From NCBI RefSeq assembly GCF_003334385.1, contig NZ_QOWN01000122.1: a DNA stretch of 1,196 bases, one strand, 5' to 3'. The DNA comes from Escherichia coli (GTDB taxonomy: Bacteria > Pseudomonadota > Gammaproteobacteria > Enterobacterales > Enterobacteriaceae). A program made the position numbers and the translations under genes. A model generated the notes under the pieces. The model did not search any database and was not told the origin of the DNA. It saw nothing but the letters and a program-made list of their open reading frames with translations. Below are positions 1 through 1,196 of the stretch, piece by piece. How positions within the stretch are numbered: position 1 is the stretch's first letter; every line of letters begins with the position of its first letter.

Positions 1-1196
1 CCCTTTAACATCCGGATGGTCAGGGAGACGGCGGACAGCACCACGGACCAACTGCAGAACAGAACGCTGTGGTCGTCATACACCGAAATCATCGATGTGA
101 AACAGTGCTACCCGAACACGGCCATTGTGGGGATGCAGGTGGATGCGGAGCAGTTTGGTGGTCAGCAGATGACGGTGAACTACCATATCCGCGGTCGCAT
201 CATCCAGGTGCCGTCAAACTATGACCCGGAAAAACGCACGTACAGTGGTATCTGGGACGGCAGTCTGAAACCGGCATACAGCAACAACCCGGCCTGGTGC
301 CTGTGGGACATGCTGACTCACCCGCGCTACGGGATGGGAAAACGCCTGGGGGCGGCGGATGTGGACAAGTGGGCGCTGTATGCCATCGGGCAGTACTGCG
401 ACCAGACGGTCCCGGATGGATTCGGGGGCACAGAGCCGCGGATGACCTTTAATGCGTACCTGGCACAACAGCGTAAGGCGTGGGACGTTCTCAGTGATTT
501 CTGCTCGGCGATGCGCTGTATGCCGGTATGGAACGGCCAGACGCTGACGTTCGTTCAGGACCGCCCGTCGGATGTGGTGTGGCCGTACACCAACAGCGAT
601 GTGGTGGTGGATGATAACGGCGTGGGGTTCCGCTACAGCTTCAGTGCCCTGAAGGACCGGCACACGGCGGTGGAGGTGAATTACACCGACCCGCAGAACG
701 GCTGGCAGACCTCCACGGAACTGGTGGAAGACCCGGAAGCCATACTGCGCTACGGACGCAACCTGCTGAAGATGGACGCGTTCGGCTGTACCAGCCGCGG
801 TCAGGCCCACCGTGCCGGGCTGTGGGTGATAAAGACCGAACTGCTGGAAACGCAGACGGTTGATTTCACACTCGGGTCTCAGGGGCTGCGGCACACACCC
901 GGTGACATTATTGAAATCTGTGATAATGACTATGCCGGGACCCTGACCGGCGGACGTGTCCTGTCCATCGATGCTGCCACCCGCACCCTGACGCTGGACC
1001 GTGAAGTGACACTTCCGGGGACAGGTGCATCGACGGTGAACCTGATTAACGGCAGCGGTAAGCCGGTAAGTGTGGACATCACCGCACACCCCGCGCCGGA
1101 CCGGATACAGGTCAGTACCCTGCCTGATGGTGTGGAGACATACGGGGTGTGGGGACTCTCCCTGCCGTCACTGCGCCGTCGCCTGTTCCGCTGTGT
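1..1196 (+). CDS. J: Internal fragment of a lambdoid phage central tail fibre / tip attachment (host specificity) protein, gpJ family; 5' and 3' ends lie outside the window
   Basis: Seen in sequence: frame 1 (codon phase 0 at base 1) is open across all 398 complete codons (1..1194, plus 2 trailing bases), with no in-frame stop. Recognised from memory, not from a search: long stretches of the translation match lambda gpJ, e.g. PFNIRM...TPDSTTDQLQN.TLWSSYTEIIDVKQCYPNTA, YSGIWDG..KPAYSNN.AWCLWDMLTHPRYGMGKRLGAADVDKWALY.IGQYCDQ.VPDGFGGTEPR, KAWDVLSDFCSAMRCMPVWNGQTLTFVQDRPSD, FRYSFSALKDRH.AVEVN, ELVED..AI.RYGRN..KMDAFGCTSRGQAHRAGLW.IKTELLETQTVDF, PGD.IEICD.DYAG..TGGRVL, TRTLTLDRE.TLP, LRRRLFRCV. 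G/C-rich third positions (ctg, ccg, acg, gcg) are typical of an expressed enterobacterial or phage gene. No start codon with a ribosome-binding site and no stop, so the gene is partial at both ends. Confidence 0.93.

Follow-up and report, generated by a model that had tools for sequence, protein, structure and literature searches.

A GC3-rich Escherichia coli fragment that is very probably an internal piece of lambdoid gene J

The window analysed here, i.e. the whole 1,196-bp stretch of DNA from the Escherichia coli contig NZ_QOWN01000122.1, is in all likelihood an internal piece of gene J of an E. coli lambdoid phage or prophage, with a GC content at third codon positions (GC3) that is a signature of the late gene block. 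Its high GC (60%) and GC3 (75%) very probably represent a feature already known for the late genes (head and tail) of lambdoid phages, namely a broad bias toward codons ending in G or C, G above all, that travels with the phage module. Such a bias would reflect neither an adaptation to the translationally optimal codons of the host nor a drift toward the host composition. The lambda-like left-arm composition pattern has already been published (PMC2266997), and the finding is in this respect already known.

Identity, domain layout and relatives of the gene

Frame +1 of the window is free of stop codons over all of its 398 codons, and each of the other five frames contains 3–18 stops. The fragment of gene J, which codes for the tail-tip host-specificity protein gpJ, occupies positions 1–1196 on the plus strand and corresponds to codons 176–573 of approximately 1157; it is open at both ends of the window, with neither a start nor a stop codon. 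The frame +1 protein matched the NCBIfam model lambda_TipJ (NF049904) with an E-value of 9.7e-277 and 920.8 bits over profile positions 176–573 of 1163. The curated whole-protein cut-off of this model, 1950 bits, is out of reach for a fragment of 398 residues, and the bits per aligned position of the window were proportionate to it. The same protein matched PHROG 31, 'central tail fiber J', with an E-value of 1.9e-245, and its residues 1–398 could be aligned without gaps to residues 176–573 of the 'Tip attachment protein J' of PDB entries 8iyk and 9e7m. Pfam domains, too, were shared with lambda gpJ (PDB 8IYK, 8K35, 8XCG and 9E7M).

The domain content expected of a lambda-type J, i.e. FNIII-A followed by a hub region with Phage-tail_3, was present in the window. 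The C-terminal end of the FNIII-A domain of gpJ was found at positions 1–96 of the plus strand (residues 1–32; Pfam PF24801 FNIII-A_GpJ, model positions 94–125 of 126, E = 3.3e-8), and the Phage-tail_3 domain, in the hub-domain part of gpJ, at positions 466–951 of the same strand (residues 156–317; Pfam PF13550, model positions 2–159 of 164, E = 9.5e-39). By homology, positions 922–1182, again on the plus strand (residues 308–394), would code for the counterpart of the additional beta-sandwich that lambda gpJ carries as an insertion in its hub domain IV. The bounds of this beta-sandwich (lambda residues 483–569) were taken, like the naming of the hub domains of lambda gpJ, from PMC10721106 and carried over via the ungapped alignment of the window with lambda J. 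Judged from these matches and the published structure of the lambda tail tip (PMC10721106), the window codes for the FNIII-A end and for the hub-domain region, a part of the trimeric cone closing off the tail tube; the receptor-binding C-terminus and the central-fibre domains of J lie downstream of codon 573, beyond the window.

The closest match of the window was the annotated J of a prophage in E. coli DETEC-S792 with a nucleotide identity of 99.7%, the four differences all being synonymous third-position changes. Phage PhiR12_2 was 98.9% identical, many Stx-converting phages were 95–97% identical, and lambda J was 77% identical at the nucleotide and 76% at the amino acid level. The window is not lambda's own allele but the J variant of Stx-converting and other E. 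coli lambdoid prophages (95–99.7% identity). The dN/dS ratios according to Nei-Gojobori were 0 for the comparison with the DETEC-S792 prophage (no nonsynonymous and four synonymous differences), 0.056 with PhiR12_2, 0.079 with Stx1_EH1995 and 0.175 with lambda. These ratios of 0–0.18 show that frame 1 is a real, constrained coding sequence under purifying selection. Together with the NCBIfam, PHROG and Pfam matches, they also bear out the proposal of an earlier note on this DNA, made from the letters alone, that frame 1 holds a protein-coding gene of a phage or prophage.

The gene order around J was read in the loci with 99.7% and 98.9% identity, as the window itself carries no flanking genes. 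In the DETEC-S792 prophage, the order is M, L, K (C40 peptidase), I, J, lom and tail fibre, and the PhiR12_2 locus likewise shows M-L-K-I-J followed by lom or tail fibre genes. The DETEC-S792 prophage adjoins the trp operon and a truncated ompW. The stretch from its tail-fibre genes to this ompW (26481–32634) is occupied by apparent cargo, namely the genes for a 1335-aa peptidase of the S6 family (SPATE-type) and for a protein carrying a YadA C-terminal domain. In the PhiR12_2 locus, two reverse-strand genes annotated as a transposase/integrase and an ATP-binding transposition helper, which form an IS-like pair, are located at 22340–27227 among the downstream tail-fibre genes, and J is annotated there at just 2865 nt compared to 3474 nt in the DETEC-S792 prophage. 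Nine of the 13 differences between the window and PhiR12_2 fall within positions 51–162 of the window (112 bp), the remainder being nearly identical, and this stretch looks like a small recombination (mosaic) patch. The J of VT1-Sakai (AP000400.1) has a 1-bp deletion opposite window position 585, where the window is intact; this deletion splits J into two CDSs that are annotated as 'truncated protein by a mutation'.

Of 5426 complete E. coli genomes, 4485 carried homologues of the window, the median number of places in a genome being 3 and the highest 14. Altogether, the 4485 genomes contain 15,061 window-like places, 54 of which are on plasmids. A scan of the window against Rfam at E ≤ 1 gave nothing, and neither promoter-like or terminator-like sites nor direct repeats were found in the window when sought. 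Two weak inverted repeats with 79–81% complementarity were present and are probably chance matches. The arms of one of them, at positions 259–282 and 515–538, are 24 nt each, 79% complementary and 232 nt apart, and lie inside the coding sequence.

Base composition and codon usage compared to host and phages

The GC content of the window was 60.45%, with exactly 60.0% in the first 60 bases, in agreement with the roughly 60% that had been estimated from the letters. All sliding 200-bp windows were in the range of 56–63% GC, without any AT-rich stretch, and the earlier statement that there is no sign of an AT-rich island was thus correct. In frame +1, the GC contents at the three codon positions (GC1/GC2/GC3) were 0.595, 0.465 and 0.754, i.e. 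GC3 was elevated over both GC1 and GC2, which had been suggested as a check. The Fourier period-3 signal-to-noise ratio was 13.7 compared to 1.01 ± 0.59 (maximum 3.9) in 500 shuffles, which, with the frame open throughout, substantiates the strong period-3 structure claimed for frame 1. The most frequent codon was CTG (27 occurrences), and CCG (17), ACG (15), CGC (15) and GCG (11) were heavily used as well, as had been stated in the earlier note. The sixth codon listed there, GGC, did not fit, as its 8 occurrences account for 24% of the glycine codons compared to 35% (12 occurrences) for GGG; GTG (21), GAC (18) and CAG (18), which had not been named, were also abundant. The compositional observation as such is confirmed as real and far beyond chance.

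For comparison with the host, 112 other K-12 genes from three chromosomal regions (a 140-kb sample, i.e. part of the genome) were used as background. The GC content of the window was 0.605 compared to 0.520 ± 0.030 for this background (maximum 0.570; z = +2.8), and GC3 was 0.754 compared to 0.552 ± 0.050 (maximum 0.667; z = +4.1), corresponding to differences from the K-12 gene means of +8.5 and +20 points, respectively. None of the 112 genes reached the window in either value, nor did any of 1367 stretches of 1196 bp from K-12 attain 60.45% GC. The Nc of the window was 38.7 compared to 47.6 for K-12 chromosomal genes. The window resembled these genes in GC1 (0.595 compared to 0.605), in the preference for CTG and in a codon adaptation index (CAI) at the chromosomal average. 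Ribosomal protein genes, unlike the window, have a GC3 of 0.50 and are rich in T-ending optimal codons. The earlier note had likened the composition to that of highly GC3-biased Enterobacteriaceae genes. This description is not supported for a window that exceeds 112 of 112 K-12 genes in GC and GC3 and 1367 of 1367 K-12 windows in GC. By the second refuting condition given in the note itself, the composition is atypical of the host, and for E. coli the fragment is foreign in composition through its richness in GC.

The CAI was calculated with a reference set of 30 K-12 genes, comprising genes for ribosomal proteins, EF-Tu and EF-G as well as rpoA. The window had a CAI of 0.425, close to the K-12 background (0.431 ± 0.100) and far under the mean of the ribosomal/EF set (0.68, range 0.55–0.84), which does not support the reading of its codon usage as that of an expressed gene. 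Compared to the ribosomal set, G- or C-ending non-optimal codons were over-used in the window, e.g. GGG (35% compared to 2%), ACG (42% compared to 6%), GTG (70% compared to 14%) and CGG (19% compared to 1%), and so was the rare A-ending codon ATA (17% compared to 0%). The shares of the host-optimal T-ending codons were 26% for GGT, 19% for CGT, 3% for ACT, 4% for GCT, 10% for GTT and 4% for TCT. With this CAI and the avoidance of these optimal T-ending codons, the window falls outside the class of highly expressed E. coli genes.

In a series of randomisations, the amino acid sequence was kept fixed and synonymous codons were drawn 1000 times per usage table. The observed GC3 of 0.754 was reached in none of the 1000 draws under K-12 usage (expected 0.573 ± 0.024) and in none of the 1000 draws under whole-lambda usage (expected 0.565 ± 0.024). 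With regard to CAI, K-12 usage predicted 0.443 when amino acids were fixed and 0.481 when amino acids and GC3 were fixed, 99.4% of the latter draws being equal to or above the observed 0.425. Codon adaptation thus gives no sign of high expression, and the bias is one of composition. Whole-lambda usage predicted a CAI of 0.356 ± 0.021, and the observed value was reached in 0.2% of the draws; when GC3 was fixed as well, it was reached in 8.9% of the draws, i.e. the excess was marginal. On the strength of the CAI comparisons and of the randomisations controlled for amino acids and GC3, we reject the idea that the bias of this fragment arose mainly through translational selection. A weak translational-selection component, as proposed for the lambda structural genes by Lucks et al., may nevertheless contribute.

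The GC content of lambda is 49.9% overall, with 57.0% from nu1 to J, 43.3% in the b region and 46.1% in the right arm. For lambda J as a whole, GC is 0.571 and GC3 is 0.684; the part of it that corresponds to the window has values of 0.586 and 0.716, respectively, and is thus comparably GC3-rich (71.6% compared to 75.4% in the window). The homologous segments of DETEC-S792 and PhiR12_2 have a GC content of about 0.606 and a GC3 of about 0.76, and the structural block exceeds the rest of the locus in GC both in DETEC-S792 (57.4% compared to 51.5%) and in PhiR12_2 (56.1% compared to 49.5%). The log-likelihood per synonymous codon of the window was best under the usage of lambda nu1 to I, J being excluded (−0.987), followed by the K-12 average (−1.069), the lambda right arm (−1.179) and, as the worst, the K-12 ribosomal/EF set (−1.329). 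As in GC3-rich lambdoid late or structural domains, GC3 was above the phage-wide expectation and left-arm codon usage was the closest. The likeness to the left (structural) arm of lambda-like phages that had been proposed for the window is supported by the 57.0% GC of nu1 to J, the GC3 of 68% of lambda J and the best likelihood under nu1 to I.

In the left half of lambda, GC3 and CAI are raised relative to the rest of the phage, and CAI of the structural genes as a class is raised even after control for GC3 (Lucks et al. 2008, PMC2266997). The window resembles the left half in that its GC3 is above both the phage average and the amino-acid expectation and in that its CAI is higher than that of the right arm, but it differs from the result for the class of structural genes in that its CAI excess is mostly accounted for by GC3 (8.9% of draws). 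Within the J of DETEC-S792 (locus 19476–22949), GC3 is 78% at nucleotides 601–1200 and 54% in the last 474 nt, which have a GC content of 50.6%. This is consistent with a separate exchange of the receptor-binding end of J, i.e. the last 474 nt.

The protein family of the window is shared by N15 gp21, the J-like proteins of tiwna and Moraxella phage Mcat16, Burkholderia phage phiE125 gp21 and the F2 pyocin fibre, and the J-like proteins of other siphophages are 35–46% identical to the window over 80–93% of its length. GC3 of the homologous segment was 43% in the T1-like coliphage tiwna, 57% in coliphage N15 (gp21), 48% in Moraxella phage Mcat16 and 81% in Burkholderia phage phiE125 (gp21). The values for N15, tiwna and Mcat16 rule out that high GC3 is intrinsic to the J fold or to coliphages; it is specific to the lambdoid lineage of the J module. 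With GC3 of the J segment ranging from 43 to 57% in other coliphages and amounting to 81% in a Burkholderia phage, GC3 does not serve as an indicator of the host. The enterobacterial host assumed in the earlier note is correct insofar as E. coli is confirmed by homology, but the composition from which it had been derived fits a Burkholderia phage equally well.

Origin of the bias and alternative explanations

Transcription of lambda J is confined to lytic growth, where the gene lies on the long late transcript made from pR' under Q antitermination. By homology, the J of the window would be expressed in the same mode, i.e. under late control as in lambda.

We consider it unlikely that the fragment stems from the J of a defective, decaying prophage that makes no functional tail tip, in which case the coding signatures would be inherited and not maintained. 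In general, lambdoid prophages are often defective. The presence of as many as 14 J-like places in one E. coli genome (median 3), the frameshift that splits J of VT1-Sakai within the homologous region, the annotation of J of PhiR12_2 at only 2865 nt and the IS element among the downstream tail-fibre genes of this phage would be in line with such a decay. The window, however, shows neither stops nor indels when compared to intact J genes, its nearest relative differs by four synonymous substitutions only, and the dN/dS of 0.06–0.08 compared to relatives of 96–99% identity argues against it. Still less probable, in our view, is that the excess of G- and C-ending codons in J and the rest of the lambdoid structural arm, which is well above the level of both the host and the right arm of the phage, is actively maintained, either by GC-biased repair or gene conversion as the several J copies of a genome recombine, or by a physical requirement on this half of the DNA. 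The number of J places per genome (median 3, up to 14), the patchy distribution of the differences to relatives and the decrease in GC3 from 78% to 54% toward the exchangeable receptor-binding end would be compatible with such a maintenance.

Very unlikely, and largely refuted by the above results, is an explanation along the lines of the earlier note, according to which translational selection, or drift toward the host composition, has adapted a native, long-resident and well-expressed gene to its enterobacterial host and thereby shaped the bias. For several two-fold degenerate amino acids, the host-preferred C-ending codons are indeed frequent in the window (AAC 82%, TAC 81%, TTC 73%, CAC 83%), CTG makes up 87% of the leucine and CAG 90% of the glutamine codons, as in the ribosomal set, CAI is above the prediction from whole-lambda usage, and a raised CAI after GC3 control was reported for lambda structural genes (Lucks et al., PMC2266997). 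These points stand against a CAI of 0.425 that is at the K-12 average level (0.431), compared to a ribosomal/EF mean of 0.68 and minimum of 0.55, and that falls under the K-12 prediction once amino acids and GC3 are fixed. In addition, the optimal T-ending codons are avoided, the rare codons GGG, CGG, ACG and ATA are common, and gpJ, with three copies per virion (PMC10721106), is needed at just this number. As GC and GC3 are above those of 112 of 112 sampled K-12 genes, there is no drift toward the host. The composition, in which a native and long-resident gene had been seen, is silent on residence time, and the sequence lacks any drift toward the host composition. Near-identical copies are found in phage records whose stated hosts are laboratory strains (E. 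coli K-12 or C), and also in prophages that vary from strain to strain.

The possibility that a second, overlapping gene on the minus strand accounts for the odd composition is negligible. The antisense ORF at positions 214–1089 (291 aa) is admittedly the sole long ORF listed for the window, and its frame stays open for 317 codons. Synonymous reshuffling of the J frame, however, yielded open runs on the antisense strand of 210 ± 51 codons on average, with 317 reached in 5.4% of the shuffles; the ORF matched no NCBIfam or PHROG family, and the changes that separate the window from relatives are synonymous when read in the frame of J. Codon position 1 of the antisense frame pairs with position 3 of the J frame, where A is rare (9.8%), and this scarcity depletes T-initial stops in the antisense frame. 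The same antisense frame of lambda J has an open run of 262. An antisense gene was rejected on the basis of the synonymous-shuffle null, which accounts for its length, and the lack of family matches in NCBIfam and PHROG; the 291-aa antisense ORF is an expected by-product of the GC3-rich sense frame.

The interpretation of the window as an internal piece of lambdoid gene J with the signature of the late block makes the fragment a further example of a phage gene that ranks among the commonest in E. coli, and as such it matters little. The lesson is that high GC3 and strong period-3 structure mark the coding frame, and not high expression, the identity of the host or the length of residence. Here, composition sets the DNA apart from its host by an excess of GC, a case that is missed by the simple reasoning that AT-rich means foreign.
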